Source: a virus. Taken from it: a stretch of 14,241 bases of DNA. Shown one piece after another: positions 1-14,241 of this stretch (positions are counted from its first letter, which is position 1; each line of letters starts with the position of its first letter). Where the stretch lies: the IMG/VR virus record IMGVR_UViG_3300007162_000002; one strand, given 5' to 3'. The position numbers and the translations under genes are program-made. The notes under the pieces were generated by a model that did not search any database, was not told the DNA's origin, and saw only the letters and a list, made by a program, of their open reading frames with translations.

Positions 1-120
1 AATCCTAACGCTCTTGTTTTTGCTGATCCAATGTTAGTAACAAATTCTGAATTTCCTACCCCTACAAATGGCATTGCTGAAATTATAGTTTCTCCAGCAG
101 CAACAGCAAAAGCCTACATG
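1..120. repeat. Terminal direct repeat, copy 1 (identical to 14122..14241). Circular-genome or assembly overlap.
   Basis: A base-by-base reading of 1..120 matches 14122..14241. The offset is 14121, which is divisible by 3, so the long ORF frame is preserved across the junction. Confidence 0.95.
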
Positions 121-3100
121 TATTATCTACCATTAGTTCCACTAGGTGTTGGAACTGCAAGTGGTGTTTCAAGATATACAAATGTATATCATAGAGTATT
201 ATATTCATTAAATTCTCACACAGTAAACCACGTTGATCAAGAAACAGATTCTTACTGGTTAACAGTTCCAGATACTAGTGAAGGAAACATTAGTTACATT
301 CAACAAAGAACTCCCGCAGGATCAACAATTAGACAACCAATATATTTACATTGGTTTTCTTTTGCTAAATCAAATGCAAATTATGCTAGTTTTATTAATC
401 TTGGTGTTGGACCTGTTTTTGCTGGTGATCAAGCAGGCAGCCAAGTAGTAAAAGTGCCACTTAGAGTTGGAAACATATCTTATAGAGGAAATACTGATTA
501 TATTCAATATCCAAGTAGTGGATTTGCAACTAAACCATTTAATTATGAAGATACTGGACCTGGAAACACTTGGCAATTTAAATTTGATGGAGAATCATAT
601 TTAAGAATACCTGAAGCAGGTCAAAGCGATTATGGTACTTATTTACAAAATTATATGACTGGCTCATATTATGGATCTTACGAAATGACAATTAGAACTG
701 ATCAAAACAATTGTGTTTTAGGTTCTGTTAGCCAAAGCATAAAAGCAACAGTAGATGGAACAGATATTTTTTCTTCAATACATTCAAGACCTTCTTCAAA
801 AGATAGTGAATTTGTTCAAGCAGAAATAAATAGCATTAGAACTGAAAGTCCATATACTACTTATACTGATAGATATCATAATAGAACATTAGAATATGCA
901 TATTTAGATGAAGGCGATTATATAAATTATGCTTCTAGTGATCAAGGTAGAAATTATGGCGACATTAGAATTGTAGATGGAAAAATAGCATTTTATCACA
1001 AAGATAGACTTAGTGGTGTAGAAACTTTAGTTTTAGGAACTACTTTAATAAATGATTTAAACAATCATCATATTATTGTAAATAGAACTGTTGATGGATT
1101 TGGCAATATGAATCAAGCAGATAAAAATAAAAAATCAAGATTAGAATTGTGGGTAGATGGTAATTTAGAAGCAATTTCTTATGAAATTAATGACAAAATT
1201 TGGTTAAATAGATTTTCATTTTTAGGAACTGGTTGGTCATTAGAAAAAAGCGGAAATGCTGAAAATGGTGAAGTAGTTACATTTAGACCAGTGTTTGATG
1301 AAAGCCAAGTATTTACTGGCTATATGCAAGATTACATTTGCAGAAGTAATAGACCATTAACAGAAATTGAAATTCAAAGATTGGCTCGTGCTAGATTTGA
1401 AATAATTGCTAAAAAAACAGATCCAATAATTGCTTCATCATCTATGCCTAACGCTACAGTTACAACAAATGCAAAAACTATATTAAGACTATATTGGGAT
1501 ATAGATGAAACTAGACAAAATGGTTTAAGTTTTACAAATAACAATTACAACATTTATACTTACAATGTTTTAAAAACTACATACAATAAACCATCAGAGT
1601 TATTTAATTTAGATCAAAACTTTAAAAATAAATTGCAAGAATTAGAAGAGGTAAGTGCAATAACTAATGATTATGTATACCTAAGCGACCCTTCTGTATT
1701 TTTAATTGATCCAGGCAATGTTGCAAATCAATTTGCATTAGGCAGTGAATTAGTTACAACTACAAGACCAAGGAAATATCATCAAGAATTTTTAGTAGAT
1801 GGAGTTATTATAAACACTGGCGATAGATTTGCTGTAACTGGTCAAACAGATCCTAGGCAAAATGGTTTATATGTATACAATGGAAGAGGAAAACCAGCAT
1901 TAAGAACAACTGATTCAAATACTGCATCTAAATTAACTAATTGTTATTTTTATGTAAGAAATGGTAATACAAATAAAAATACTTATTGGACATGCGTTTC
2001 TGAAAATATAACAAAAAGAATAGAGGCTGGATTTGGAAACTTAAGAGGAAAAAATTCTCCTTTAATATTTAAACAAATATATGATACAGAGATAACAGAA
2101 TCTTCTCCAATATATGATGATTATTATAGAAATGGAATTGCAAAAACTCCTAGATTTATAGATGTAAATAATGATATTGAATTTGATTATGACATTATTA
2201 CATTTATTAACTATCCAACAAATAGTAATGAGTTGTTAGAATCAATTCCTGGTTATGACAAACAATATGTAAGCAATCTTTATAAAGACTTTATTAATAA
2301 TTTAATTACTGCTGCTGCAAATGGAAAAAATATATTTGTAAACAGTCCAATGCTTACACAAGATTTAGGAATAGCAACAAATGTAGTAAATGTTCCTCAA
2401 ACTTTTGACACAAACGATACAAAAAGTCAATCTGAAAACTTATTTGATTTAACAACTTCTGGATCTATTCATTTTGATAATTACAGAAATAATAAATATC
2501 AAGTTGTAAACACATTGTCTGGTTTAACAAATCAATCAACATATATTATGACAGATTTTGTTAACTATATACCAGAACAATCTTGGTTAAATGATCAATA
2601 TCACATAAAATATACAAATAAAACAAGCGGTTTATCAATAAATGATGAATATATAATTCCAACTTTGCCAGTTAGGTCTGCACAACTTAATTTAATAAAA
2701 TCTAACAATCAAATTGGATCAAAAGATATATTTGGAGTTTTAGGTTCAAACATAATAGTTGGAACACCAATAACAACTTTTGGTCAAAATTATTGGGTTA
2801 ATAATACATTAACTTCAAATCCATATAAAAATTATGTAACAACTATTGCTGTAAATTCTGGATCTGTAGTAAAAGGTATTACTATAACTGGTAAAATATT
2901 TGTTAATTTAGTAGAAGATGGATTAACTGCTGGCAGAGAAGATTATAATTATGCAATTTTACAAGACGTTCCAAATACTCAAGAAACTGCTGCTAAAAGA
3001 CTTTGGCAATATTCAACCAGTCGTTTAAGAAAAAATAAAAAATATGTTCTTGAAGAAGAAGCCTACAACATTCAAAGACTTCCAAGCAATTCTGGTGGAG

Positions 3101-3279
3101 GTCCTATAGTTCAAATGCCAACAAACATTACCGATGGAACTATTAGGAATAATTATGATATAGAAAATGGTAATGCTTATTCAACAGAATATAATAATGT
3201 TGAAAATGAATTATATACCACAATAAAAGTTCCGTGTTTAAGTATGTCTTACATGGGATTAAAATGGTTAGGGGGTTAA
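1..3279 (+). CDS. Giant multidomain virion (tail or receptor-binding?) protein, C-terminal 1092 codons. Continuation of 12319..14241 across the circular junction.
   Basis: Frame 1 is open from base 1 to TAA 3277..3279 and is the same frame as the ORF entering from 12319. The combined ORF is 5082 nt / 1693 aa. There is a LamG/ConA-like signature at about 577..1401 (FKFDGESYLRIPE ... RLELWVDGNLEA ... FTGYMQDY). There is a tail-fibre-like motif at about 1819..1998 (GDRFAVTGQTDPRQNGLYVY...RTTD...YFYVRNG...TYWT). Confidence 0.8.
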   Translation, partial: NPNALVFADPMLVTNSEFPTPTNGIAEIIVSPAATAKAYMYYLPLVPLGVGTASGVSRYTNVYHRVLYSLNSHTVNHVDQETDSYWLTVPDTSEGNISYIQQRTPAGSTIRQPIYLHWFSFAKSNANYASFINLGVGPVFAGDQAGSQVVKVPLRVGNISYRGNTDYIQYPSSGFATKPFNYEDTGPGNTWQFKFDGESYLRIPEAGQSDYGTYLQNYMTGSYYGSYEMTIRTDQNNCVLGSVSQSIKATVDGTDIFSSIHSRPSSKDSEFVQAEINSIRTESPYTTYTDRYHNRTLEYAYLDEGDYINYASSDQGRNYGDIRIVDGKIAFYHKDRLSGVETLVLGTTLINDLNNHHIIVNRTVDGFGNMNQADKNKKSRLELWVDGNLEAISYEINDKIWLNRFSFLGTGWSLEKSGNAENGEVVTFRPVFDESQVFTGYMQDYICRSNRPLTEIEIQRLARARFEIIAKKTDPIIASSSMPNATVTTNAKTILRLYWDIDETRQNGLSFTNNNYNIYTYNVLKTTYNKPSELFNLDQNFKNKLQELEEVSAITNDYVYLSDPSVFLIDPGNVANQFALGSELVTTTRPRKYHQEFLVDGVIINTGDRFAVTGQTDPRQNGLYVYNGRGKPALRTTDSNTASKLTNCYFYVRNGNTNKNTYWTCVSENITKRIEAGFGNLRGKNSPLIFKQIYDTEITESSPIYDDYYRNGIAKTPRFIDVNNDIEFDYDIITFINYPTNSNELLESIPGYDKQYVSNLYKDFINNLITAAANGKNIFVNSPMLTQDLGIATNVVNVPQTFDTNDTKSQSENLFDLTTSGSIHFDNYRNNKYQVVNTLSGLTNQSTYIMTDFVNYIPEQSWLNDQYHIKYTNKTSGLSINDEYIIPTLPVRSAQLNLIKSNNQIGSKDIFGVLGSNIIVGTPITTFGQNYWVNNTLTSNPYKNYVTTIAVNSGSVVKGITITGKIFVNLVEDGLTAGREDYNYAILQDVPNTQETAAKRLWQYSTSRLRKNKKYVLEEEAYNIQRLPSNSGGGPIVQMPTNITDGTIRNNYDIENGNAYSTEYNNVENELYTTIKVPCLSMSYMGLKWLGG

Positions 3280-3280
3280 A

Positions 3281-3688
3281 ATGTTTGCAACAACAACACA
3301 AGTATTTAATTTAACAGCAGTTAATGTTAACGAATCATTAATTTCTCGTGCTCAATCTATAATTGAAGTTTATATTGGAAGATTAGAAGCATCTGTTACA
3401 AATACTACTGATTTAGAATATTTAAAAAGAGCAGTGTCTTATCAGGCTGCCTACATGTTAAACAATGAAGATATTGTTTTTGAACAAATAGCAGCAAGTA
3501 CTATAAGTCAAAATGATTCAGTAGTAACTTTTAAGCCAGGAGATCAAAATGCACCATGGATAGCACCTTTGGCTATTATGGCTTGTAAAAGATTATCTTT
3601 CTTAAAAACTCGTTATATAAGAACAGGAAAAATAGATCCAGTAACACTTTTGTCTGATGATATAGATTCTGATTGGACAACAATCTAA
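3281..3688 (+). CDS. Head-tail connector/adaptor (gp6-like, Phage_connect_1-like).
   Basis: 135 aa. A GGGGG ribosome binding site sits just upstream (3271..3275). The pattern ...SRAQSIIEVYIGR...LKRAVSYQAAYMLNN... resembles gp6/gp15-type connector proteins. Confidence 0.55.
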   Translation: MFATTTQVFNLTAVNVNESLISRAQSIIEVYIGRLEASVTNTTDLEYLKRAVSYQAAYMLNNEDIVFEQIAASTISQNDSVVTFKPGDQNAPWIAPLAIMACKRLSFLKTRYIRTGKIDPVTLLSDDIDSDWTTI

Positions 3689-4014
3689 TGAAATTATCAT
3701 CGGTATTTAGAAATAAATATATTGGAGATTACCACAATTATATAAATAAAAAACAAGGCAATCAAACAATACAAGAATTTTTCTTTGATAAAAAGATTAA
3801 TTTTACTATGGGAACAGAAGGAAGTGCTGAAAGGCTTTCTTTTTATTCTGAACATAGTTTAAGAGTTGGTGCTGAAATTAGAAATGTTAAAGATTCTAGA
3901 GGAATTAATATTTTTCCAGAAGGATACTATAGTATTACTAATGCACAGCCTATAGTAAATGTATTTAATAATATATCAGGATATAAATATAGAGCCATAA
4001 GAATATTGGAGTAG
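3688..4014 (+). CDS. Hypothetical small structural-module protein (108 aa).
   Basis: The ATG at 3688 overlaps the upstream TAA (TAATG). The TTG at 3673 in the ORF track is a less likely start. No recognisable motif. Confidence 0.6.
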   Translation: MKLSSVFRNKYIGDYHNYINKKQGNQTIQEFFFDKKINFTMGTEGSAERLSFYSEHSLRVGAEIRNVKDSRGINIFPEGYYSITNAQPIVNVFNNISGYKYRAIRILE

Positions 4015-4019
4015 GATAA

Positions 4020-4535
4020 ATGTTTGGTGCATCTTACTTGGTTCGATTTATAGGAAGAACTACTGCTAGAAGATTAGCAAGATATATATCTAGAGATTTT
4101 TTTAGAAGAATTAGAGGTTCTTTAGGTTCTTACGTAGATGATTTTTTAGCATCTGAAAGTGCTGAAGAATTTGGTCAGGCTATTATTGCCGCTTCTATTG
4201 TAGAAGCAATAGGTGTAATGTCTACTATGGTAGTTAACGCTGGTATGGAATCAATTTTTGAAGATTATGTAGTTCCAGCCTTTGAAGGCATAGAAATTAG
4301 TCCAGAAGATTGTGATCCAGAACAAGTTTATAACGATATACCTGCAGAATATTTAGAATTTATGTCTGATATGGTGTCAGAAGGGGTTTCTATAGTTGAA
4401 GCCGCAAAAGAAGAAGCCTTAGAAATAGCAGAATTTGCTTCTCTTTCTGGCGTAAAAGTAGGTGCTGGTATGTCAAATCAAGGCATAGGTGAAGGAATAG
4501 GTGGAGGAGAAGACTTTGATGGTGAAGACGATTAG
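4020..4535 (+). CDS. Hypothetical protein (171 aa) with a basic N-terminus, a hydrophobic centre and an acidic Gly-rich C-terminus.
   Basis: ATG 4020 is preceded by GGAGTAGGA. The N-terminus is RFIGRTTARRLARYISRDFFRRIR. The hydrophobic stretch is AIIAASIVEAIGVMSTMVVNAGM. The C-terminus is GIGEGIGGGEDFDGEDD. Confidence 0.65.
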   Translation: MFGASYLVRFIGRTTARRLARYISRDFFRRIRGSLGSYVDDFLASESAEEFGQAIIAASIVEAIGVMSTMVVNAGMESIFEDYVVPAFEGIEISPEDCDPEQVYNDIPAEYLEFMSDMVSEGVSIVEAAKEEALEIAEFASLSGVKVGAGMSNQGIGEGIGGGEDFDGEDD

Positions 4536-4538: not shown

Positions 4539-4566
4539 TTGACAGTTGTCCACCGTATGGTATAAT
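4539..4566 (+). promoter_or_regulatory. Near-consensus sigma-70/sigma-A promoter for the rep gene.
   Basis: TTGACA at 4539..4544, a 16-nt spacer, then TGgTATAAT (TG 4558..4559, TATAAT 4561..4566). It lies immediately after the stop of the upstream gene and 28 nt before the rep ATG. The spacer contains an iteron copy. Confidence 0.8.
4544..4552 (+). repeat. Iteron copy (AGTTGTCCA) inside the rep promoter spacer.
   Basis: Exact match to the 9-mer repeated at 4889, 4910, 4931, 4952 and 5132. Confidence 0.8.
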
Positions 4567-4593
4567 AGTAGTACACAAGTAGAGAGGTGTAAT

Positions 4594-5265
4594 ATGAATC
4601 ATCATTCATTTAGAATGTTAATTAAAGACATTCCTAGCAATATATTAAAAAATAATAATATAAATCCAGCACATTTTAAAGCAGTTTGCTTTATTTTGTC
4701 TATGTATGGCAGTTACGAAACAGGCACAAGCGTATTTCCATCTTGGCTTACTGTGGCTAAAGAGGCTGGTGTTGATAGAAAAACTGGTATGAAAGTAAGA
4801 GATTTTTTGCTTAAATACAATATTTTAACTCCTATAGGTAAAAGATTAAAGAATGTATCAGAATATAAATTCTCTGATCCATCAGATGAGTTGTCCATTA
4901 TGATGAATAAGTTGTCCACTTTAGACATGCAGTTGTCCACTTTACCAAATCAGTTGTCCAGTATTGATGGACACAATAGTATTATAGATACTACTATAGA
5001 TAGTATTAATTATATTATTAAAGAAGATTTAAAAGAAGAAAAAAATCAAGGGGTAGATTATTCTTTGATTAATAATTTAAATACCCTTGATTATGAATTA
5101 ATAGATTGGGATGATGAATCCGAAGATGACCAGTTGTCCAATTTAGACTACCCAGATGAGGAATTAGATAAAGTCTTTCAAGAAGACTACCAAAATTCGG
5201 GGGTAGAAAAGAATAAAGAATTAGAAGATATGATGAATAGTTACTTTACCTTTGGAAAGATATAA
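4594..5265 (+). CDS. Replication initiator / origin-binding protein: winged-HTH N-terminus and acidic C-terminus.
   Basis: ATG 4594 is preceded by GAGAGGTG (4582..4589). HTH-like segment SWLTVAKEAGVDRKTGMKVRDFLLKYNIL. The iteron array lies inside the linker coding region, and the C-terminal half is acidic. The TTG at 4546 in the track falls inside the promoter and is unlikely. Confidence 0.6.
   Translation: MNHHSFRMLIKDIPSNILKNNNINPAHFKAVCFILSMYGSYETGTSVFPSWLTVAKEAGVDRKTGMKVRDFLLKYNILTPIGKRLKNVSEYKFSDPSDELSIMMNKLSTLDMQLSTLPNQLSSIDGHNSIIDTTIDSINYIIKEDLKEEKNQGVDYSLINNLNTLDYELIDWDDESEDDQLSNLDYPDEELDKVFQEDYQNSGVEKNKELEDMMNSYFTFGKI
4889..4960 (+). repeat. Iteron array: 4 direct copies of AGTTGTCCA with exact 21-bp spacing (putative ori).
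   Basis: Copies start at 4889, 4910, 4931 and 4952. They are read in frame as xLS(I/T/S). A markedly AT-rich tract follows (about 4961..5045). Confidence 0.85.
5132..5140 (+). repeat. Sixth iteron copy (AGTTGTCCA).
   Basis: Exact 9-mer in the same orientation, preceded by C as in three other copies. Confidence 0.75.
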
Positions 5266-5435
5266 TGACTAAATTATTTATTGATGAAACTAGAAATTAT
5301 TATGTATTTGTTTGTCCAAAAGATGGAGAAATTGATATAGTATATACTGAAGAATTAGACAAACCTATTGGATCATATTTTCATCCAACATGTAAAACTG
5401 AATGTGACCTACTAGAACTAGATTGGGTATTATAA
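5265..5435 (+). CDS. Small hypothetical protein (56 aa) with a Cys/His cluster.
   Basis: Not in the ORF track, presumably because it is too short. ATG 5265 overlaps the rep stop (TAATG). The frame is open to TAA 5433..5435. The protein MTKLFIDETRNYYVFVCPKDGE...HPTCKTEC carries C-x22-H-x2-C-x3-C. Confidence 0.5.
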   Translation: MTKLFIDETRNYYVFVCPKDGEIDIVYTEELDKPIGSYFHPTCKTECDLLELDWVL

Positions 5436-5638
5436 TGGGAACTCCTAGAATCAAAATAAAAGAAACAAAAACAACATATCAATATACAATTTTATATTGT
5501 AACAATGAAAATCGTGCTGAAATAATTTCATACAAAACAGAAGCCTTTGATAAAAATCCCCAAGTTAAGTGCTCTTCTTGTGAATGCAATCATTTTATGC
5601 AAGTTATAGGTTGGGAAGAAGAAACGTGGAAAGCGTAG
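5435..5638 (+). CDS. Small hypothetical protein (67 aa), Cys-rich.
   Basis: ATG 5435 overlaps the upstream TAA (TAATG). The TTG at 5423 in the track is less likely. Contains CSSCECNH. Confidence 0.55.
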   Translation: MGTPRIKIKETKTTYQYTILYCNNENRAEIISYKTEAFDKNPQVKCSSCECNHFMQVIGWEEETWKA

Positions 5639-5817
5639 TAAGTCCTTTAAACCCTATTGAAATCATACTTAAATATCCAGATATTTGTCAGATCTGTAAT
5701 CAAAAAATGAAGATGCTTGATTTAGGAATATGGAGAGGTAAACAATACGGTATGCTTCACACCGATTGTTACAACAAAAGTGTTAACACAACATTAGAAG
5801 AATTGCTTGATTGGTAA
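5626..5817 (+). CDS. Small putative zinc-binding protein (63 aa from GTG 5626, or 77 aa from ATG 5584).
   Basis: Contains C-x2-C-x20-H-x2-C (ICQIC...HTDC). The start is ambiguous, and the frame overlaps the end of the preceding ORF. Confidence 0.5.
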   Translation: MESVVSPLNPIEIILKYPDICQICNQKMKMLDLGIWRGKQYGMLHTDCYNKSVNTTLEELLDW

Positions 5818-5831
5818 CTATGTGCTATAAT
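5803..5831 (+). promoter_or_regulatory. Putative extended -10 promoter.
   Basis: TTGCTT at 5803..5808, a 17-nt spacer, then TGcTATAAT (TATAAT 5826..5831). Confidence 0.5.
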
Positions 5832-5837
5832 AAACCT

Positions 5838-5855
5838 ATAAGTCTTCTGACTTAT
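5838..5855 (+). other. AT-rich hairpin (7-bp stem, TTCT loop).
   Basis: ATAAGTC at 5838..5844 pairs with GACTTAT at 5849..5855. It lies between the two putative promoters. Confidence 0.4.
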
Positions 5856-5876
5856 TAATTATATTAGTAGCCATAT

Positions 5877-5885
5877 TGATATAAT
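5877..5885 (+). promoter_or_regulatory. Putative extended -10 promoter element (TGaTATAAT) with no good -35.
   Basis: TG at 5877..5878 and TATAAT at 5880..5885. The predicted transcription start is about 5891..5893, at the foot of the GC-rich hairpin. Confidence 0.5.
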
Positions 5886-5893
5886 CACCTCTC

Positions 5894-5947
5894 GAGGGAG
5901 GGGCGGGATCTGTGGGGTCACAGTCATACTACGCCTCTCCTTCTTTT
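5894..5947 (+). terminator. GC-rich compound hairpin plus T-tract: an intrinsic terminator or attenuator, or the body of a small RNA.
   Basis: GAGGGAGGGGCG at 5894..5905 pairs with CGCCTCTCCTTC at 5932..5943 (12 bp including G-U pairs). There is an inner CTGTG/CACAG hairpin at 5910..5923. TTTT follows at 5944..5947. This is the only strongly GC-rich island in an AT-rich genome. Confidence 0.6.
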
Positions 5948-5997
5948 AAAGAGGTAGATTGCAATGTTGCAGTAACTAGTATAAATGGGAGGATTAA

Positions 5998-6102
5998 ATG
6001 AGTTCTGGCTTTACAGAAGAATTAACTTTAGAACAACTTCAAGCATTAAATTTAAATCCACCAATCGTTGGTGCACAAATTTCGGGGTATACAGAAGAAT
6101 AA
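5998..6102 (+). CDS. Small hypothetical protein (34 aa).
   Basis: ATG 5998 is preceded by GGGAGGA (5987..5993). Sequence MSSGFTEELTLEQLQALNLNPPIVGAQISGYTEE. The stop TAA 6100..6102 overlaps the next ATG. The ATG at 5985 in the ORF track sits on top of this ribosome binding site and is in another frame. Confidence 0.5.
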   Translation: MSSGFTEELTLEQLQALNLNPPIVGAQISGYTEE

Positions 6103-6266
6103 TGATATTATTTCCTACTGCTAATGATGTATCCTATGATATAGAAAAGAAACATATATCCTTTTCAATGATATTCTTTGATGAAACAAATAAAACTAAT
6201 ATAGTTATAACATTTAAGGCTGATACCGCTCTTCAAGAAGTAATAGAAGATTTGTTGGTTAAATAA
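6102..6266 (+). CDS. Small hypothetical protein (54 aa).
   Basis: In-frame ATG 6102 of track ORF 5985..6266, coupled to the upstream stop (TAATG). MILFPTANDVSYDIEKKH... Confidence 0.5.
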   Translation: MILFPTANDVSYDIEKKHISFSMIFFDETNKTNIVITFKADTALQEVIEDLLVK

Positions 6267-6454
6267 TGGTAAATAAATGGTATTGGAAGAATAAAATGAG
6301 TAAATATGTAGGGACCGCCGCAAGTGTGTGTCTTAATCCTAAAAACCCTGGTTCATGCTTAAATTTGAGGGTATATAAATGTAAAGATATATGTAATTTT
6401 GTTAATAATAGTAAATATGATTATTATATGAATAAATCAAGGATAAGTTTATAA
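6266..6454 (+). CDS. Small hypothetical protein (62 aa) with four Cys.
   Basis: ATG 6266 overlaps the upstream TAA (TAATG). An alternative start at ATG 6296 follows GGAAGA. Confidence 0.45.
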   Translation: MVNKWYWKNKMSKYVGTAASVCLNPKNPGSCLNLRVYKCKDICNFVNNSKYDYYMNKSRISL

Positions 6455-6462: not shown

Positions 6463-6954
6463 ATGGGATATAGTAAATATAATGAAGATCAAATAGAAGA
6501 ATTTATTTCTACCGCCGATGAAATGGGCCTTGGGCCAGCAATCCGCTATTTAGGCTATCCAGGCTCTTATCATACAGCCAAGAAGTTTTATACACAAAGA
6601 GGATTAGATCTTCCTACCCCCGATAGTTTGGCGGTACTGGCAAGAAATTTAGGTATATTTTATACTGATAAAGAAAAGATAGTAGCAGCACAAGCAGTAT
6701 TAGATAGATGCTTTGAAAAACTAATGGAAGATAGTCTTAATAGTGAAGAATTAAATAAATTATCAAATGCTGTTCATAAAGCAATACAAACTATTAATCT
6801 AATAGAAGGAAAATCTACTAATATTAATGAAAATAGATCTAAAGATGGTACAGATCTAGCATTAGTTGATATGATTAATGAAGCAAAGATTAAAAATAAT
6901 GAAATGAAAGAAAGAATTATAAATAAATCTATTGACAAGGTAAATAATATATGA
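6463..6954 (+). CDS. Putative terminase small subunit.
   Basis: 163 aa, with an AAGGAG ribosome binding site at 6453..6458. It sits upstream of the large terminase. The N-terminus is HTH-like (EEFISTADEMGLGPAIRYLGYPGSYHTAKKFY) and the C-terminus is coiled-coil-like. The call rests on position and size only. Confidence 0.5.
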   Translation: MGYSKYNEDQIEEFISTADEMGLGPAIRYLGYPGSYHTAKKFYTQRGLDLPTPDSLAVLARNLGIFYTDKEKIVAAQAVLDRCFEKLMEDSLNSEELNKLSNAVHKAIQTINLIEGKSTNINENRSKDGTDLALVDMINEAKIKNNEMKERIINKSIDKVNNI

Positions 6955-7051: not shown

Positions 7052-7261
7052 ATGACTCCAGACATGATAACTGCTATAGGGGCAATAGTTCTTGGCATTT
7101 TAGGTGGTTTTTGGGCCTTTATGAGGTATCTGGTGACCAAGTTCTTATCAGAGTTAAAACCTAATGGTGGTTCTAGTTTAGTTGATAAAGTAGATAGATT
7201 AGAAAAAAGAATTGATGATATATATATTATATTAATTGAAAAGAAAACTAGGAGAAAATGA
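7052..7261 (+). CDS. Single-pass membrane protein (69 aa), holin-like topology.
   Basis: N-terminal TM segment ITAIGAIVLGILGGFWAFMRYLV. The tail is charged and ends KKTRRK. The stop overlaps the terL start (ATGA at 7258..7261). Confidence 0.65.
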   Translation: MTPDMITAIGAIVLGILGGFWAFMRYLVTKFLSELKPNGGSSLVDKVDRLEKRIDDIYIILIEKKTRRK

Positions 7262-8757
7262 GAGCAGAAGATATAATATCAAAGGTTCCAGTTGAACTAT
7301 TAACTGTCAAAGAAGGCAGAATAGAATTAACTAAGTATGATCCTTTATTATTTGCTTTAGTTTATTTGCCTCATCATTTAAAAAATTCTAAGAATGAGAT
7401 TACCCTTTCCGAGTTCCATGTTGATTTAGCGGAGTTTGGGAAATCTTGGATAGTCCCGCCGACTTATCCGAAGCAACATAGGGATGCGTTTATTGCCCCT
7501 AGGGAATCTGGAAAGAGTACATGGGTCTTTCTAATTCTTCCTTTGTGGGCTGCTGCTCATAATCACGTAAAGTTTATTGCAGCCTTTTCAGATGCTGCTT
7601 CCCAAGCCGAAACTCATCTGCTAACATTTAAGAATGAATTGGACACTAATGAATATTTACAAAGCGATTATCCAGAGATGTGTAAGCCTAAGATGGTATC
7701 TACAACAGGTAGGGCGTTGGCTAACAACTCATGGAGAATTGTCCAATCAAATGATTTTATTTTTGATGCTAATGGTATTGATACTAACTCATTAGGTAAA
7801 AAGGTATTTGGTCAAAGACCAGATCTTATTATTTTAGATGATATTGAAAAAGGCGAAAAGAACTATTCTGAGTATCAGGCTGGACAACAGTTAAATACAG
7901 TCTTTGATGATATTGCTCCTATGAACATATATTCTAGGATGATTTTTGTTGGAACTACAACTATGCCTAATTCTATTATGGATCAATTTAGAAAAAAGGC
8001 TGAAGGTTTTAAAGAAGCAGAATTAGGATGGATAACTGATCAAAATGTAAAAGTTCATTATTATCCAGCAATTATGCAAAATGAAGACGGTTCTGAAAGG
8101 TCTGTTTGGGAAGAAAAGTGGACTTTAGAATGGCTACAAAGCCAAAGACATTTAAGAGACTTTGCTAAAAACTATATGAATAAACCAGTTAACTTAGATG
8201 GTAACTTTTGGGCTAATGAAGATATAATTATAGAAGAAGCAGAAGAGTATGGAAATACTATTATTTCAGTAGATCCAGCAGTAACTAAAAACAAAGTTTC
8301 TGATTATACAGGTATAGCCGTATTGTCAAGAGGCATAGATGCTTTAGGTAATGAAAACATTTACATAAGAGATGCTCAACAAGTTAAATTGTCACCATCT
8401 GATTTATGTGAAAAAATAAAAGACTTGGCAAAAACATATGATGCAGGATTATTATATGTTGAAACTAACCAAGGTGGAGATCTTTGGCAGGATGTGTTTA
8501 AAACTATTCCTATTAAATATAGATCAAAACATCAAAAGTTGTCTAAACAGATTAGGGCTGGAAAAGCCTTAAACTTTTATCAACAAAAGAAAATACGACA
8601 TAATGCTCATTTTCCTGCATTAGAAGAGCAAATGTGGTCTTTTCCAAAAGTGTCACATGATGACGTACTTGACGCTGTAGTCACAGGAGTATTGTATTTC
8701 CTAGACAATAAAGCAGTAAAAGTAATAGCAAGACAATTTAACTATTTAAGGAGTTAA
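7258..8757 (+). CDS. terL: Terminase large subunit.
   Basis: 499 aa. Walker A APRESGKST and Walker B DLIILDDIE. C-terminal RNaseH-like nuclease acidic motifs are present (IISVDPAV, LYVETNQGG, SHDDVLDAV). The portal gene follows immediately. Confidence 0.9.
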   Translation: MRAEDIISKVPVELLTVKEGRIELTKYDPLLFALVYLPHHLKNSKNEITLSEFHVDLAEFGKSWIVPPTYPKQHRDAFIAPRESGKSTWVFLILPLWAAAHNHVKFIAAFSDAASQAETHLLTFKNELDTNEYLQSDYPEMCKPKMVSTTGRALANNSWRIVQSNDFIFDANGIDTNSLGKKVFGQRPDLIILDDIEKGEKNYSEYQAGQQLNTVFDDIAPMNIYSRMIFVGTTTMPNSIMDQFRKKAEGFKEAELGWITDQNVKVHYYPAIMQNEDGSERSVWEEKWTLEWLQSQRHLRDFAKNYMNKPVNLDGNFWANEDIIIEEAEEYGNTIISVDPAVTKNKVSDYTGIAVLSRGIDALGNENIYIRDAQQVKLSPSDLCEKIKDLAKTYDAGLLYVETNQGGDLWQDVFKTIPIKYRSKHQKLSKQIRAGKALNFYQQKKIRHNAHFPALEEQMWSFPKVSHDDVLDAVVTGVLYFLDNKAVKVIARQFNYLRS

Positions 8758-8758: not shown

Positions 8759-10132
8759 ATGACAGATATAAAAAATGCGTTAGAAAGACTTATAGATCGT
8801 AGAAACGAATATAATCTTGCTCACGTTTACTATGATGGAAATCAAAAAGAATTGTTTCCAAACCAAAAATGGGCAACTATTTTTAGAACAACCGCTAATC
8901 ATTTTAGATTTAATTTTACTAGAACAGTGGTTGATTCAGTTTTAAATAGGTTAGAAATTGCTTCAGTTTTAGCAACAACCGAAGAAGCAGATCAAATTAT
9001 TAATAGAGTTTGGGAATCAAATGATTTAGTGTTAGACGCTAATGAAATTCACAAAAGAGCATTAGTTTATGGAGATGCTTATGCAATTGTATGGACAGAT
9101 GAAAATGGAGAAATTCAAATAAATTACAATTCTCCATTAACAACCGTAGTCGTATACGATACAGAAAATCCAAGAATAAAAAGATTTGGTGCAAAGATGT
9201 GGCAACATTCAGATCCATATGATGCTTTTAATAATAAAGTAATTAGATTAAATATGTATTATCCAGATCGTATTGAAAAATATGAAGCATATGGAGAAGT
9301 AGATACAATAGTTTCATCAACAGCATTTACTTTATTAGAAATTGTTGAAAATCCATGGAACGAAGTTCCAGTATTTCATTTTAGAACATCAAAACAATAT
9401 GGAAGACCAGAACATTACGATGCTTATGGACCACAAGATGCTATCAACAAGTTAATCATTACACATATGAATACAGTTGATTATCAAGGTGCACCTCAAA
9501 GGTACGCACTTGCTGGTGGGGGAACAAATGAATCAGAAATTGTTGATTTTGACGAAACAGAAGAAGCGGTTAATGTTGGAACATTAAAAAATGGACCAGG
9601 AGAACTTTGGTACCTTAAAGGTATAACAAGAGTTGGAGAATTTGCTCCAGCAGATCACAAAGTGTTTACTGAGCCAGTTACAGAATACATTAAGGCAATG
9701 GCTTCATTAACATCAACACCTATTCACTATTTTGATAAAACAGCAGGACAATCTAGTGGTGAATCTTTAAGAACAGCAGAAGCACCTTTAATTAAAAAAA
9801 TACAAGATAGACAAATATCTTTTGGTAGTACATGGAGAGATTTGTTTAGATTTATATTAAAAATTGAAAATCTAGAATCTGAAATTATGACAGGTAATTT
9901 AGATGTTCAAATTAAATGGGTTCAACCAGAAAGTTTAGATACTTTAGACTCATGGGAAGTAGCAGTTAAAAAACGTGTTGTTGGAGTATCTTTGCAACAA
10001 GTTTTATTAGAGATGGGCTATGATTTAGAAGTAGCAAATAGAATTGTTGAAGAAGCAGATGCTGGATTAATGTCTCAAGGCATGAATGCTAGTAATATTG
10101 CTGCTCAACAAGCAGGGCAAAGAATAGAATAA
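8759..10132 (+). CDS. Portal protein (SPP1 gp6-like family by appearance).
   Basis: 457 aa, 1 nt after terL, with an AAGGAG ribosome binding site. N-terminal AHVYYDGNQ motif. Size and position are typical of a portal. Confidence 0.85.
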   Translation: MTDIKNALERLIDRRNEYNLAHVYYDGNQKELFPNQKWATIFRTTANHFRFNFTRTVVDSVLNRLEIASVLATTEEADQIINRVWESNDLVLDANEIHKRALVYGDAYAIVWTDENGEIQINYNSPLTTVVVYDTENPRIKRFGAKMWQHSDPYDAFNNKVIRLNMYYPDRIEKYEAYGEVDTIVSSTAFTLLEIVENPWNEVPVFHFRTSKQYGRPEHYDAYGPQDAINKLIITHMNTVDYQGAPQRYALAGGGTNESEIVDFDETEEAVNVGTLKNGPGELWYLKGITRVGEFAPADHKVFTEPVTEYIKAMASLTSTPIHYFDKTAGQSSGESLRTAEAPLIKKIQDRQISFGSTWRDLFRFILKIENLESEIMTGNLDVQIKWVQPESLDTLDSWEVAVKKRVVGVSLQQVLLEMGYDLEVANRIVEEADAGLMSQGMNASNIAAQQAGQRIE

Positions 10133-10141: not shown

Positions 10142-10597
10142 ATGGAAGAAGAAGTAAATATAGAAAATATGGTTTCTACGGAGATTAAAGATCCTAAAAA
10201 GGTTCTTGATGCTTTAGATAGAGCCAAATCTGATGCTAAAAAGTTCAGAGAAGAAAAAGAAGAACTAAAAAAACAATATGAAAAAGCAGTTGTTGAATTA
10301 AATGATTGGTCTGCAGAATTATTAAAAGAAAGGGTATCTAGAAAATTAGAAAAAGATGGATTACCTAATGCAGATAGATTATTTAAATATCTTGATTTTG
10401 GAAAAATTGGTTTTGATCCTGATAAAGATATAGTTGGATTAGATGAACAAATGGAAGTCCTTAAAGGTGATTTTCCAGAACTTTTTGATCCAAAAATAAG
10501 AGTTGGGGGTAGGGTAAATGCTGCGGCAGACAATCCTGCAAACACTTCTTTATCTGCAACTGAAAAACAAGCAAAATACATATTAGGCAAAATTTAA
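10142..10597 (+). CDS. Scaffolding protein.
   Basis: 151 aa, highly charged and Lys/Glu-rich with a helical character. It lies between the portal and the major capsid gene. The capsid protein lacks a delta domain. Confidence 0.6.
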   Translation: MEEEVNIENMVSTEIKDPKKVLDALDRAKSDAKKFREEKEELKKQYEKAVVELNDWSAELLKERVSRKLEKDGLPNADRLFKYLDFGKIGFDPDKDIVGLDEQMEVLKGDFPELFDPKIRVGGRVNAAADNPANTSLSATEKQAKYILGKI

Positions 10598-10720: not shown

Positions 10721-11626
10721 ATGGCATTAACACGTACAGACTTTACCGAAGCCAATGGTTACATCTTAGAGGAACAAGGTAGCCAAGCAGTTCAAGCAAC
10801 CTTAGTTAACTCTGCAGTTGAATCATTTGCACGTAGAGAAGCAATGGCTTCACGTACTAAATCAGTACCTCGTTTTGTTTCAGATGCAGCAGATGTAGTC
10901 GCAGAAGGCGATGAAATTCCATCAGCAGTAGCAACACTAGACGAAGTAGTATTAACAGCAAAGAAATATGCACAAATTATGTACATCTCTGAGGAAGACG
11001 TAAACGATTCAATCGTAGACGTACTTGCAACATACAAAAGAGAATGGGCATCACGTTGGGCACGTAAATTTGACAACGCAACACTTGCAGTTACAGTGGC
11101 AACAGATGGTACAGACACTGCACCATTTACATCACTATACAGAGCAATTACAACCTCTCCATCAGCAAGTGCAAATCTAATCACAACAGGTGGTGCACTA
11201 TCTTTTGCAGACATTAACAATGCTTTATCAGCAGTTGAATCAAGCGAAAAATTTGATGCAGCAAACACAGTATTTATGGCACATCCAAAAATGCTAGGTC
11301 ACCTTCGTGGAATGATTGACAGCAACAACGATTTGGTTCTTCCAAATCCAATTGCAGCAACACCAGGACAATTATTTGGTTATCCATTAGTTGTTTCTTA
11401 CGGTGCAGCAAAATCTTCAGCAGCAACAGATGCTCCAACAGGAAACGAATTATTAATCGTTGGTAACCGCCAAATGTTAATTAATGGCGTTCGTGGTGGC
11501 GTAGAATCAGTTGTTTCTCGTGATGCAGAATTCGCAAAGGATGGCGTTCTTCTTAAGACTCGCATTCGCAGAGGCTTTGCAGTAGCAGATGCTGGTGCGT
11601 TCGCAATCGTAGAGAAAACGGCATAA
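10721..11626 (+). CDS. Major capsid protein, HK97 fold (Phage_capsid-like).
   Basis: 301 aa. Motifs typical of HK97-family capsid proteins: VAEGDEIP...LTAKKYAQIMYISEEDVNDS...KFDNATL...HPKMLGHLRG. Strong AAAGGAG ribosome binding site. Codon usage is distinct from the rest of the genome. Confidence 0.9.
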   Translation: MALTRTDFTEANGYILEEQGSQAVQATLVNSAVESFARREAMASRTKSVPRFVSDAADVVAEGDEIPSAVATLDEVVLTAKKYAQIMYISEEDVNDSIVDVLATYKREWASRWARKFDNATLAVTVATDGTDTAPFTSLYRAITTSPSASANLITTGGALSFADINNALSAVESSEKFDAANTVFMAHPKMLGHLRGMIDSNNDLVLPNPIAATPGQLFGYPLVVSYGAAKSSAATDAPTGNELLIVGNRQMLINGVRGGVESVVSRDAEFAKDGVLLKTRIRRGFAVADAGAFAIVEKTA

Positions 11627-11642
11627 GGGGGGGGAATAACAC

Positions 11643-12077
11643 ATGGCTTCAAAGTTATATGGTTCCTTCTTACTAAAAGCATTAAATAAGGAAATTGATT
11701 GGGACACTGATACCATTAAGGTAGCACTTCTAACAAGTTCTTATACACCAAACCAAGATACTCACGACTATTTCGATGATGTAGTCGCAAATGAAGTATC
11801 TGGCACAGGATATACTGCAGGTGGAAATACCTTGGCTTCAAAAACTATCACTTATGATGGTGCAACAAACAAGGTTGTTCTTGACGCAGCAGATACTACT
11901 TGGTCAGCAAGTACTATCACAGCACGTTACGCAGTAGTTTATGATGCTTCACCAGCATCCGATGCAACAAGACCAGTAATTGGTTATGTTGACTTTGGTT
12001 CTGATCAATCATCATCTTCAGGTAATTTTACAATCACATGGGATGCAACAGGTATTGTTGTTATTACAGTAGCGTAA
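11643..12077 (+). CDS. Hypothetical virion protein co-expressed with the capsid protein (decoration or auxiliary head protein?).
   Basis: 144 aa, with a GGGGGGG ribosome binding site at 11627..11633. It shares the GC-richer composition of the capsid gene. The sequence pattern IKVALLTSSYTPNQDTHDYFDDV..EVSGTGYTAGGN...ARYAVVYD looks like a conserved phage family that I cannot name. Confidence 0.7.
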   Translation: MASKLYGSFLLKALNKEIDWDTDTIKVALLTSSYTPNQDTHDYFDDVVANEVSGTGYTAGGNTLASKTITYDGATNKVVLDAADTTWSASTITARYAVVYDASPASDATRPVIGYVDFGSDQSSSSGNFTITWDATGIVVITVA

Positions 12078-12096
12078 ATTATATGAATATAAGAGT

Positions 12097-12253
12097 GCAG
12101 GCTAAATCAATTGAATTAATAGCAAAAACTATTAATCCTTTTGTAGTAATTAAATTAAATTATCTTCCTATGGATATAATTAATTACGCAACCATTAGCC
12201 TGCCTCTACTTAACAAAGTTCTTTCAATTGCAGGACATAGCATTTCAGCAATT
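12097..12253. repeat. Cluster of nested inverted repeats (structured RNA or DNA element).
   Basis: GCAGGCTAA at 12097..12105 pairs with TTAGCCTGC at 12195..12203. These enclose ATTAATAG 12115..12122 / CTATTAAT 12129..12136 and GTAATTAA 12146..12153 / TTAATTAC 12180..12187. A further pair is AATTGC 12226..12231 / GCAATT 12248..12253. Confidence 0.6.
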
Positions 12254-12281
12254 AACCCAAAATTTTTAAGAGGTGAAACAG

Positions 12282-12315
12282 TAGCCGTATACGCATAAGC
12301 GTTGCGGCTATTTTT
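12282..12315 (+). terminator. Rho-independent terminator after the capsid mini-operon.
   Basis: A 12-bp stem with one bulge (12282..12294 pairs with 12299..12310) and loop ATAA, followed by TTTTT at 12311..12315. Confidence 0.7.
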
Positions 12316-12318
12316 ATT

Positions 12319-14241
12319 ATGTTAATGAAAAATTGGACTGTAACTGAATATAATCCAGACTATTTTTGGGATTTTGAAGACGCAACAATAGAAAATATGA
12401 CAAGCGATGGGTCTGTTTCTGATCCAACGTTTACAAAAACAAATACTCCAGCAAGATTTGATATATCAGAACAATATTATGGCATGTGGCCATCTGACAA
12501 TGCTTTCTTTAACAATTCAACTGGATTTGTACAAAGTACTAATAGTACACTTGGTGACTATTTAGATAATGGCAATTACGCAATTAACTTTTTTATAGAA
12601 TTTTCAAAACATGGTGTTAGTGGAACAAAAAATCTTTTAGCAATAAACTTTGCAAGCAATTCTTTAGTTTTACAATTATTAGGAACTAGTGCTGGTGCTG
12701 ATGCTTATAAATTAAGAGTTACAAGTGGTGGAAATACTCTTTTAACATCTACTCAACAGCATTGGTCATATGCTGCAAGTGGTGCGGTAGTTAGTGGTGG
12801 ATTTTTAAGCACTCCTACTGGATGGACTGGATTGCGTCCAGCATTTATGATGGTTACATTAAGACAATCTGGTGGCAATATAGAATTATATATAAATGGT
12901 TCTTTAGATGTTTCAACTTCATTTACAGCACCAAGCGGAGCCTTTACTAATTTTAGAATAGGCTCAGATTCCGTAAGTGTTAACTTTCTTATGGATCAAT
13001 TAAGTGTTGCTTCTTCATCTACATATACTGCAACTAATTTAGCAACTTTGTGGGATTTATTTTTATTAGGAGAAATTCCAGTAGATGCAATGACAACAAG
13101 TTCTGCAATTTTTGCTGATCCAACTGTTGTTATTACTAGCCCAGATGTTACTTATGTAGCAGATAGTATGGATGCTAGTTCAGATTTTATAAACCCATTT
13201 CCAGAAATTGCAGAAATTAATCCAGCCGATGTTCTTTTAGCAGATTGTTTATTTAACGATCCTTTAATTTCTATAGAAGAAGATAATTCTGAAAACGAAA
13301 TGACTGCAAGTGCTGAATTTATAGATCCAACAATCATAACAAATTTAATTTTAATAGTTGCAGCAGATCCTGCTCTTGCAAATGCAGAAATGATTGATCC
13401 ACAAGTTGTGGCATCTCAAGATAATAATTTTGTTGCAGATGAATTTTTAGCCTCTGCTGACTCTGGAAATCATTTATATTCTTGGTATCATGTTAGACGT
13501 TTTAATAGAAGAGACAAAATTCCAAGCGGAACAGATGCAATTTATGACATAGTAAATGTTTTTAGTAGTCAAAATTTATGGTTTTATCAAGCACAAATTG
13601 ATGATGATTCAAGAATAACAAGCACTACTCCTTTATATTTTAAACCAGAATTAAGTGGCATTGCAAGTGGATCTGTTGTTAAGGCTTTAATTAAACTTCC
13701 AATTAAAAATTTTAGTGCAACTTCTGGAACTAGCATTCTTGACATGTACAGAACAACTGGTGCTTGGTCATTAAATACAATAATTAATTCAAATCAACCA
13801 GCAGCAAGTTTAGTAACTAATGATTATTCATTTAGTTGGACTTCTGGTGATTTTCATTACATAGATGTTACTGAACTTTACAATAATTTATCATCTAACT
13901 CTAATACAGGTTTTTATATATCGCTTTCAAGTGGCAATCCAGTATACTTTGATTTAGAAAGTTTTGGTCATCAATTTCAATTAGATTTATATCTTAACAC
14001 TCCACCAGTTAATGCAATAATTGCAGCAGACCCTGCTTTGGCAAATGCAGAAGTTACTTTTGGAAATAAACAAGTTTTTGTAGACCCTGCTTTGGCAAAT
14101 GCAGAAATGATGCCAACAACAAATCCTAACGCTCTTGTTTTTGCTGATCCAATGTTAGTAACAAATTCTGAATTTCCTACCCCTACAAATGGCATTGCTG
14201 AAATTATAGTTTCTCCAGCAGCAACAGCAAAAGCCTACATG
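12319..14241 (+). CDS. Giant multidomain virion protein, N-terminal part. It runs off the window end and continues at 121..3279 of the circle.
   Basis: Frame 1 opens after TGA 12274..12276. The first ATG is at 12319 (a second is at 12325), and there is no stop before the window end. There is a LamG/ConA-like signature at about 12364..13070 (NFFIEF...NLLAINF...AFMMVTLRQSGGNIELYINGSL...FRIGSD...MDQLSV). Short xDPxx repeats follow. There is a DNRLRE/CBM96-like beta-sandwich signature at about 13463..14010 (...MYRTTGAWSLNTIINSNQPA...FHYIDVTELYNNL...NTGFYISL). Confidence 0.8.
   Translation, partial: MLMKNWTVTEYNPDYFWDFEDATIENMTSDGSVSDPTFTKTNTPARFDISEQYYGMWPSDNAFFNNSTGFVQSTNSTLGDYLDNGNYAINFFIEFSKHGVSGTKNLLAINFASNSLVLQLLGTSAGADAYKLRVTSGGNTLLTSTQQHWSYAASGAVVSGGFLSTPTGWTGLRPAFMMVTLRQSGGNIELYINGSLDVSTSFTAPSGAFTNFRIGSDSVSVNFLMDQLSVASSSTYTATNLATLWDLFLLGEIPVDAMTTSSAIFADPTVVITSPDVTYVADSMDASSDFINPFPEIAEINPADVLLADCLFNDPLISIEEDNSENEMTASAEFIDPTIITNLILIVAADPALANAEMIDPQVVASQDNNFVADEFLASADSGNHLYSWYHVRRFNRRDKIPSGTDAIYDIVNVFSSQNLWFYQAQIDDDSRITSTTPLYFKPELSGIASGSVVKALIKLPIKNFSATSGTSILDMYRTTGAWSLNTIINSNQPAASLVTNDYSFSWTSGDFHYIDVTELYNNLSSNSNTGFYISLSSGNPVYFDLESFGHQFQLDLYLNTPPVNAIIAADPALANAEVTFGNKQVFVDPALANAEMMPTTNPNALVFADPMLVTNSEFPTPTNGIAEIIVSPAATAKAYM
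13358..13392 (+). repeat. Intragenic repeat encoding (V)AADPALANAEM, copy 1.
   Basis: TTGCAGCAGATCCTGCTCTTGCAAATGCAGAAATG. It differs from copy 2 only at synonymous positions within the shared peptide (GAT/GAC and CTT/TTG). Confidence 0.85.
14021..14055 (+). repeat. Intragenic repeat encoding (I)AADPALANAEV, copy 2.
   Basis: TTGCAGCAGACCCTGCTTTGGCAAATGCAGAAGTT. It lies 663 nt (221 codons, in frame) downstream of copy 1. Confidence 0.85.
14082..14106 (+). repeat. Intragenic repeat encoding VDPALANAE, copy 3.
   Basis: The 25-nt AGACCCTGCTTTGGCAAATGCAGAA is identical to 14028..14052 and lies 54 nt downstream of it. Confidence 0.9.
14122..14241. repeat. Terminal direct repeat, copy 2 (identical to 1..120).
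   Basis: Same as copy 1. It lies inside the open frame that starts at 12319. Confidence 0.95.

Follow-up and report, generated by a model that had tools for sequence, protein, structure and literature searches.

A 14.1-kb uncultured viral genome homologous to and collinear with the satellite phage MiniFlayer

MiniFlayer (OQ357865) is a satellite of the Streptomyces phage MindFlayer that has linear DNA with a 1,057-bp direct terminal repeat (DTR) and encodes neither an integrase nor a replicase (deCarvalho et al., 2023; PMC10690885). It proved inseparable from its 130-kb helper on purification, and its ~42-nm capsids, which bear short fibres, were found attached to the helper neck and never to cells (PMC10690885). 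Here we describe IMG/VR virus record IMGVR_UViG_3300007162_000002, a 14,241-nt stretch of DNA (hereafter the window) that closes into a unit of 14,121 bp with 32.0% GC. We conclude that it is probably the complete unit of an uncultured, freshwater-type relative of MiniFlayer, that is, of a capsid-encoding, non-integrating ("virulent") satellite virus.

Other small capsid-encoding elements resemble the window less closely. Mulchroom (OQ784832) and Ando (PMC13587820), which at 13–15 kb are of similar size, have a homologous head module (TerL 51–56%, portal 44%, major capsid protein (MCP) 40%, adaptor 36%); unlike the window, they are temperate, carry a tyrosine integrase, a helix-turn-helix (HTH) regulator and Lsr2, and use long tails made by the helper. 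They also lack the gp6/gp8/gp11 adsorption module, the place of which is taken in Mulchroom by the integrase, regulator and Lsr2; the genes Mulchroom has in common with the window are the head module and adaptor only. The cf-PICIs, of similar size, likewise bring an HK97-type capsid, portal, terminase and connectors of their own and have no tail or lysis genes, but they reside in the chromosome as integrated islands, possess an integrase and a separate replication module, and are induced by a helper prophage; our searches of the window and of sequenced genomes (below) found no integrase, primase or integrated copy. No sequence relationship between cf-PICIs and the MiniFlayer group has been reported (PMC10690885). 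Another capsid-encoding "true" satellite, compared here by its description, is reported to infect at the same time as its helper, to which it attaches (PMC12822802, PMC13587820). The helper in that case is a myophage that infects a Gram-negative host, and the satellite is absent among the listed TerL matches of the window.

The small podoviruses of the phi29 type also have sub-20-kb dsDNA genomes and small capsids. They differ in carrying a protein-primed family B polymerase (PolB), a terminal protein, pRNA packaging, a tail knob and collar and a lysin, and in the types of their terminase and portal; no polymerase domain was found in any open reading frame (ORF) of the window, including its giant ORF. 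The original prediction, made from the sequence of the window, had started from the premise that tailed phages below 20 kb carry such a polymerase. This does not hold generally: satellites of 12–20 kb depart from it, as does Salmonella phage astrithr, which is autonomous at 11.6 kb (bioRxiv 10.1101/2025.06.18.659913).

Gene content in common with MiniFlayer

When the TerL protein of the window was queried against 50,697 phage records, the two best matches were Streptomyces satellites: Mulchroom (14.8 kb), whose record lists another phage as its "host", and MiniFlayer (17.4 kb). A whole-genome megablast against these records gave no match, relatives being visible at the protein level only. The head, packaging and neck genes of the window are as follows:

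6463–6954, + strand: TerS, small terminase subunit (33% identity, E = 1e-25, to MiniFlayer TerS; 31% to Mulchroom TerS)
7258–8757, + strand: TerL, large terminase subunit (Terminase_6C, 3.6e-10; phrog_38, 2.6e-74; 44% identity to MiniFlayer, 51–56% to Mulchroom)
8759–10132, + strand: portal of the SPP1 gp6 type (PF05133, 3.1e-25; phrog_104, 6e-67; 42–44% to the satellites, 42% to MiniFlayer)
10142–10597, + strand: scaffolding protein (PF06810, 8.2e-11; 39% to MiniFlayer)
10721–11626, + strand: HK97-fold MCP (PF05065, 3.6e-23; 45% to MiniFlayer)
3281–3688, + strand: head-to-tail adaptor resembling MiniFlayer gp10 (47% to gp10; 36% to the Mulchroom adaptor; phrog_22288)
3688–4014, + strand: homologue of MiniFlayer gp11 (hhalign 97.5%, E = 5e-12, to gp11 with a family profile of the 113-aa ORF; gene call in relative L003)

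The full head and packaging module of the original prediction is borne out, with TerL, portal, scaffold and MCP recognised by Pfam and PHROGs, and TerS and adaptor by homology to the satellites. The ORF of the gp11 homologue opens at 3673, and its likely start is a conserved Met at 3688; it has a weak match to the Mulchroom stopper and is possibly a stopper-like neck protein. A sequence search with the adaptor against the PDB gave no match. Judged by these homologies, the genome is predicted to encode all components for assembling a small HK97-type head and filling it with DNA, together with a neck made of the adaptor and the gp11-like protein.

Ten genes are homologous between MiniFlayer and the window's family: nine lie in the window, with gp11 detected by profile only, and the tenth, gp9, occurs in a subclade of relatives. 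Eight of the ten were visible to BLASTP with identities of 33–72%, and the giant protein stands at 27%. Gene order is identical in the window and MiniFlayer, both of which have a collinear head module without a protease and an adsorption and neck module of gp6, gp8, gp10 and gp11. Neither has an integrase, primase, helicase, polymerase, lysis genes or a tail tube, in both every gene lies on the same strand (18 of 18 plausible genes on the + strand in the window, as predicted, with summed gene lengths of ~96% of the unit), and both carry a mid-genome iteron array. They differ in protein sequence (identities of 27–72%), in GC content (32% against 46.7%), in unit length (14.1 against 17.4 kb) and in source: MiniFlayer is an isolate from a soil Streptomyces and the window comes from a metagenome, probably of freshwater. 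The window is therefore not the distinct, isolated minimal lineage first proposed, being homologous to and syntenic with MiniFlayer and, to a lesser degree, Mulchroom. Nor does the suggested low-GC host follow, since the GC content of MiniFlayer tracks that of its helper and not that of its host (PMC10690885).

The reported absences were confirmed with four profile libraries. Searches of all window ORFs against Pfam, PHROGs, NCBIfam and PADLOC found no polymerase, primase or helicase, integrase or other lysogeny module, endolysin, prohead protease, tail tube, tape measure or baseplate gene, and no PolB, integrase or lysin domain in any ORF including the giant one; the same functions were absent among 36 representatives of the accessory ORFs of the family. 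NCBIfam gave no match at all in the window, PADLOC found no defence genes there, and tRNA and Rfam scans of the window had no match. MindFlayer encodes an endolysin, a holin, a DnaB-like helicase, a primase, a single-stranded DNA-binding protein and a full tail. Because these are exactly the functions absent from the window, a helper of this kind would supply them, and because the window is homologous to and syntenic with a satellite, helper dependence best explains why they are missing.

As a separate observation, Mulchroom TerL (L002, 661–2565) aligns to the window TerL in two blocks, residues 1–249 and 393–634; the gap between them implies an insertion of ~143 aa, which resembles an intein or an insert of the homing-endonuclease type.

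The adsorption module and the replication initiator

Besides head and neck, two genes make up a putative adsorption module:

11643–12077, + strand: gp6 homologue, the most conserved gene (72% identity over 144/144 aa to MiniFlayer gp6; phrog_644, 1e-44)
12319–14241, continuing at base 1, + strand: giant fibre or adhesin ORF, variable N-terminal part, aa 1–641 (CBM96, 1e-7; Laminin_G_3)
1–3279, + strand: continuation of the giant ORF, aa 602–1693 (C-terminal module homologous to MiniFlayer gp8)

Read on the circularised unit, the giant ORF opens at 12319, crosses the junction, ends at 3279 and encodes 1,693 aa, against 1,376 aa for the MiniFlayer fibre, from which its N-terminal half differs. 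The N-terminal ~750 aa are variable, with a ConA-like/LamG domain, a CBM96 domain and repeated ADPALANAE linkers; on the family conservation map, this region is common only with relative L016. The C-terminal module (~aa 800–1693), by contrast, is conserved among family members as well as in MiniFlayer gp8 (27% identity over 340 aa). An exhaustive HMMER search, which replaced a word-index search saturated by the low-complexity words of the module, returned 1,786 representative homologues, in which it always lies C-terminally in proteins of 1,000–2,200 aa. LamG or ConA-like lectin domains occur in 23 of the 28 giant-protein homologues sampled, CBM96 in four of the 28, and phage tail-fibre N-terminal domains in single members, and neither the giant ORF nor any of these 28 has a lysin or polymerase domain. 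Profile and fold searches revealed no nozzle and no tube, and a profile of the giant ORF's module against the PDB matched only, and weakly, a decoration- or fibre-type domain and a LamG-like one. We therefore read the giant ORF as encoding a predicted lectin-type fibre or adhesin with no hidden enzyme.

The gp6-like protein is a putative virion structural protein of the same module. Its homologues are present in autonomous phages, where two records annotate it as a minor tail protein, and a gp6-like domain lies inside a 502-aa "Structural protein" of Agrobacterium phage 7-7-1. Its AlphaFold2 (AF2) model is beta-rich and of moderate confidence (pLDDT 62.6); Foldseek with this model gave homologues only and no solved fold, and a sequence search against the PDB had no match. 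Going by these domains and homologies, the adsorption module would consist of the gp6-like protein and the 1,693-aa lectin-type fibre. Such a fibre would be compatible with attachment to a helper neck, yet it is not specific to it.

Two observations touch on the fibre. Firstly, an exact 25-nt direct repeat (14028–14052 and 14082–14106) lies just upstream of the assembly junction and encodes DPALANAE, a peptide that occurs four times in the giant protein; these repeats are probably linkers between fibre modules. Secondly, MindFlayer gp42 (L094, 8098–9066), upstream of the helper's morphogenesis module, is a glycosyltransferase. Since the helper has this enzyme and the satellite fibres are rich in lectin domains, one may speculate that the satellite recognises glycans on the helper virion.

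Replication appears to be initiated from a compact region of the window:

4539–4566, + strand: sigma-70 promoter TTGACA-16-TGnTATAAT (12/12 consensus match, extended -10)
4594–5265, + strand: winged-helix, lambda-O-like replication initiator, 223 aa (hhalign to the family HTH_36 cluster; AF2 winged helix)
4889–5140, + strand: candidate origin within the initiator gene (four AGTTGTCCA at 21-nt phase, 4889–4960, and a fifth at 5132–5140)

The 9-nt iteron AGTTGTCCA occurs six times in the window, all within 4544–5140, against 0.13 expected by chance. One copy (4544–4552) overlaps the last base of the -35 element and the spacer of the promoter at 4539–4566, which suggests an autoregulated initiator promoter. 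The 4594–5265 product aligned to the family HTH_36 cluster (hhalign 88%, E = 3e-6), whose members match the PHROG families "replication initiation O-like" and "DnaD-like helicase loader", and a close variant of the window protein has a weak match to a PHROG initiator family. In the AF2 model the N-terminal winged helix is confidently predicted (pLDDT 90–97) and the part encoded by the iterons is predicted to be disordered; Foldseek returned winged helix-turn-helix (wHTH) DNA-binding folds, including the N-terminal domains of plasmid RepA proteins. The iteron-type initiator of the original prediction is thus real, by its six iterons, its winged-helix fold and its O-like homology through relatives, and can be specified as lambda-O-like. 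Together these features point to a minimal replicon, comprising a lambda-O-like initiator, a host-type promoter and phased iterons inside the initiator's own gene as the predicted origin. Because such an initiator comes without helicase, loader, primase or polymerase, the replisome must come from elsewhere.

The arrangement recalls lambda O with ori-lambda and the Rep proteins of iteron plasmids, in which a DNA-binding initiator likewise appears with phased iterons in its own coding sequence; in iteron plasmids a binding site in the initiator's own promoter similarly suggests autoregulation. It differs from lambda O in that the protein of the window's relatives is much shorter (~150 aa), in that no P-like helicase loader is present, and in its iterons, which are 9-bp cores at 21-bp phase. 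Within the family the iteron changes with the initiator variant: AGTTGTCCA is also found in relatives L053 and L021, and other members have AGAAGTCCA or AAAGATAA (~10.5-nt spacing). Three of the ~150-aa winged-helix homologues (P0286, P0306 and P0312) bear the JGI names "DsrC/TusE", "Cas2" and "cellobiose phosphorylase", which look like spurious automatic annotations.

MiniFlayer was published as having no replication genes (PMC10690885). Its genome (L001) nevertheless contains four GTCTGTCC at 22-nt spacing (12335–12408) within the "hypothetical" gene gp13 (11911–13017), an array that looks like an unrecognised origin and initiator analogous to those of the window. The window initiator, a wHTH protein of the HTH_36/O-like type, has no detectable BLASTP similarity to gp13, and gp13 has no PHROG match. 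Since gp13 contains a comparable iteron array, possession of an O-like initiator does not conflict with placing the window in the MiniFlayer type. Short direct-repeat clusters are also present in MiniFlayer gp19 (L001, 14888–15206; GAATGCGA / TGCGAACG) and Mulchroom gp15 (L002, 11854–12086; CACGACAG), two homologous "membrane protein" genes (phrog_10376), and may mark a second cis-acting site.

The uncultured family, candidate helpers and competing explanations

A TerL scan of IMG/VR recovered at least 274 relatives of the window with 77–86% identity, on contigs with 31–41% GC whose lengths reach a ceiling at units of ~14–16.7 kb. The source metagenomes are probably lakes. A single architecture is seen in eleven long family loci: TerS, a small membrane protein, TerL, portal, scaffold, MCP, the gp6-like protein, a small ORF and the giant protein, followed by the adaptor, the gp11-like protein, an acidic protein of ~95–185 aa, a variable region and a 55-aa ORF. 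The giant protein is either one ORF of ~1,700 aa or two of ~1,000 aa. One subclade (L018, L019 and L025) has a longer match to gp8, and L018 and L025 carry a homologue (36–42%) of the gp9 "tail fibre". Among the 36 accessory representatives, which cover all clusters, only HTH_36/O-like/DnaD-like proteins and HNH/EndoVII nucleases were recognised; the HNH cluster is found in 43 loci and is absent from the window.

The gp6-like protein belongs to thousands of clusters in a collection of 5.8 billion proteins. Its 120 closest members lie almost always on contigs of 14–17 kb, one of them being the GenBank "uncultured Caudovirales phage" UFOVP552_17. By contrast, a scan of one genome for each of 185,579 GTDB species gave a single match, on a free 11-kb contig, and no integrated copy. 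This contig (L093; RHCX01000049.1) was assigned to the Nitrososphaeria metagenome-assembled genome (MAG) WBC_8_2A_255; it has no cellular genes or flanks, and its place in this archaeal MAG is almost certainly a binning error, contig and MAG both being low in GC. We rejected an archaeal host because this contig is a free element, because the promoters and Shine-Dalgarno sequences are bacterial (sigma-70), and because the nearest cultured relatives are actinophages; those of the head genes infect Actinomycetota. In the literature searched we found no paper describing this satellite family, and MiniFlayer itself is scarcely mentioned.

A scan of IMG/VR with the portal of the helper lineage found more than 529 relatives, among them a clade of 33.5–41% GC whose contigs reach 104 kb. 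Twelve low-GC contigs are collinear with MindFlayer from gp46 through portal, protease, MCP, adaptor, stopper and gp54/55 to the major tail protein (23–64% identity); 11 of the 12 continue into the tape measure, and nine have a gp45-like segment:

33.5–39.8% GC, Stanwilliamsviridae-like contigs: L200, L213, L222, L223, L227–L230, L235, L242, L246, L247

To our knowledge, the Stanwilliamsviridae-like family has been known only from high-GC soil actinomycete hosts. The GC content of this clade is 33.5–41% and that of the satellite family 31–41%, and six metagenome identifiers are common to the top-80 lists of the satellite and helper scans, a co-occurrence that is circumstantial. On such circumstantial grounds, the low-GC MindFlayer-like clade is the obvious helper candidate.

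By analogy with MiniFlayer, the virus would enter the cell together with a larger helper siphovirus, possibly gripping the helper virion by its fibre. Its own initiator would fire its own origin with a replisome borrowed from helper or host, and its late operon would be expressed from host-type promoters just ahead of a promoter-proximal terminator hairpin. The ~14-kb genome would then be packaged into its own small capsids and released through the holin and endolysin of the helper. We tentatively propose, as a possibility we hold with less than even confidence, a diverse and abundant lake lineage of non-integrating, capsid-encoding satellites paired with low-GC Stanwilliamsviridae-like helpers, which would keep head, neck, lectin fibre and a lambda-O-like origin and initiator and outsource replisome, lysis and entry.

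If this is true, hyperparasitism by phage-on-phage hitch-hiking would be a common freshwater interaction and not a curiosity. Virulent helper-riding satellites have been known from one or two laboratory isolates, and the MiniFlayer gene set now appears in a large uncultured family whose members are currently filed as generic "uncultured Caudovirales". What is gained is a large set of genomes from which to define what such satellites must keep and what they can lose, a putative origin and initiator overlooked in the type isolate, and a specific clade of candidate helpers. Very small virome genomes recorded as "complete" phages may be satellites, with consequences for estimates of virus–host relations and virus abundance.

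Several points weigh against this account. Helper dependence is drawn from homology to MiniFlayer and MindFlayer, and the window lacks gp9 and the HNH nuclease that MiniFlayer has. No sequence link was found between the satellite family and the helper-like loci; the co-occurrence is uncorrected for how freshwater phages in general co-vary in abundance, and the satellite family is at least as abundant as the putative helper clade. With its own initiator and host-type early and late promoters, the element need not rely on a helper for expression or origin firing. The carbohydrate-binding modules of the fibre are typical of binding to host-surface receptors, so that the particle might adsorb to cells by itself, and a lysis or ejection function of non-canonical type could lie hidden among six to eight unassigned small ORFs or in the extensive unassigned parts of the giant protein.

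Most of these points would also fit an autonomous, minimal short-tailed phage that adsorbs by its lectin fibre, recruits the host replisome through the O-like initiator and lyses the cell with an unrecognised small protein. The consensus host-type promoters of early and late genes, the initiator and origin, the carbohydrate-binding domains, a conserved small membrane protein and the great abundance of the family all speak for such a phage, and astrithr demonstrates that an autonomous tailed phage can be as small as 11.6 kb. We nevertheless regard it as unlikely: no endolysin, holin–lysin pair, tail nozzle or tube, or ejection protein was found in the window or its relatives, and no tailed phage is known to lack a muralytic enzyme. 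MiniFlayer, with the same gene set, could not be propagated without its helper and was never seen on cells (PMC10690885).

Somewhat less likely again is a satellite of the Mulchroom, Ando or cf-PICI type, whose tailless heads would dock on helper tails and which would persist as an iteron plasmid without integrating. The adaptor and weakly stopper-like gp11 homologue are as in tail-hijacking satellites, an autoregulated iteron replicon is typical of plasmids (the initiator's fold matches include plasmid RepA domains), and P4 is able to persist as a plasmid (PMC10690885). On the other hand, the gp6–gp8(–gp9)–gp10–gp11 module is specific to MiniFlayer and absent from Mulchroom, and neither profile searches of the window nor the family's accessory representatives yielded partition, toxin–antitoxin or repressor genes. 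No copy was found in the isolate genomes or plasmid-like contigs of the 185,579 species. For the plasmid-like carrier state once suggested for the window we found no evidence: partition and maintenance genes are absent, and the sole match among those genomes is the free 11-kb contig.

It is very improbable that the window arose by misassembly or is part of a larger phage genome falsely closed on a repeat. Short internal repeats of the giant ORF do immediately precede the 120-nt terminal repeat, but the junction is spanned at 100% identity in six independent assemblies, dozens of relatives agree in gene set and in a ceiling of 14–16.7 kb, and longer contigs simply repeat the unit.

Genome closure, small open reading frames and the late control region

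The two ends of the window repeat each other:

1–120, no strand: duplicate of 14122–14241 (exact identity; assembly overlap closing the 14,121-bp unit)

These 120 nt are the longest exact terminal overlap. As originally predicted, the window is one closed unit of 14,121 bp, by the exact repeat, by the ORF that reads through the junction and by the spanning assemblies: the junction ± 400 nt is covered at 100% identity by six contigs from other JGI, ENA and Logan assemblies. The window MCP is encoded on 14 public contigs, the longest of which (ena:ERZ27245853:k141_443871) measures 14,262 bp, that is, 14,121 plus a MEGAHIT k-mer overlap of 141 nt. The 120-nt terminal duplicate is an assembly overlap and not a biological repeat. 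Two relatives (L048 and L053) are likewise self-closing. "Circular" here describes the closure of the assembly; a collapsed DTR would give the same closure.

A larger genome, or integration, behind contigs of 23–47 kb was ruled out, as both contigs that were opened, a 47-kb ENA scaffold (L179) and a 29-kb JGI contig (L181), are head-to-tail tandem copies of a ~15-kb unit. Successive copies differ in the accessory region (98-aa versus 153-aa ORFs, for example), so that these contigs are either true concatemers or assemblies walking through co-existing strains.

Contigs of two independent assemblies (JGI 3300006862 and ENA ERZ27245792) both start exactly at 5888, which lies 3 nt past a TATAAT, at the foot of a GC-rich hairpin and upstream of TerS. 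This position could mark where a DNA molecule physically ends, where a transcript begins (if the data sets are transcriptomes) or a breakpoint caused by strain variation; it is only a hint toward a MiniFlayer-like DTR that includes TerS.

The remaining small ORFs of the window are these:

4020–4535, + strand: conserved 171-aa protein (family-conserved; one hydrophobic segment and an acidic tail)
5265–5817, + strand: three small overlapping ORFs of 56, 71/67 and 77 aa, Zn-ribbon-like (weak DUF4428 and Zn-ribbon matches only)
6102–6454, + strand: two small conserved ORFs, 54 and 62 aa, upstream of TerS (gene calls in L003, L004 and L006)
7052–7261, + strand: 69-aa single-pass membrane protein (phrog_9869; family-conserved; transmembrane segment)
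12083–12298, + strand: 71-aa ORF at the position of MiniFlayer gp7 (gene calls; family homologues)

The 69-aa membrane protein is the sole holin-like candidate, with no partner lysin in the window; a homologue search with it was uninformative. A comparison of the 171-aa protein with MiniFlayer gp12 gave no match, and the 71-aa ORF has no detectable similarity to gp7. The three ORFs at 5265–5817 occupy the position of the HNH/EndoVII nuclease of relatives, and homologues of the 54-aa ORF are found across the family.

Between these ORFs lies the control region of the late operon:

5823–5955, + strand: late-operon control region (extended -10 elements TGCTATAAT, 5823–5831, and TGATATAAT, 5877–5885, then a hairpin)

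The GC-rich hairpin (5887–5955; folding free energy dG -38.2, z -3.67) ends in a U-run. We compared this layout in the window, L021, L029, L038, L039, L044, L047, L070, L082, L089 and others, and found ahead of the late operon an extended -10 promoter, a hairpin of ~70–130 nt with a T-run, a second promoter and the 55-aa ORF. The hairpin stems vary among members yet remain complementary. An anti-Shine-Dalgarno-like CACCTC is present in 9 of 13 distinct leaders, mostly in the loop, against 0.26 expected, and in the window leader CACCTCTC is the reverse complement of the ribosome-binding site of the initiator gene, GAGAGGTG (4584–4591). The leader hairpin could act as an attenuator in the manner of lambda PR'-tR', or it could form a small regulatory RNA.

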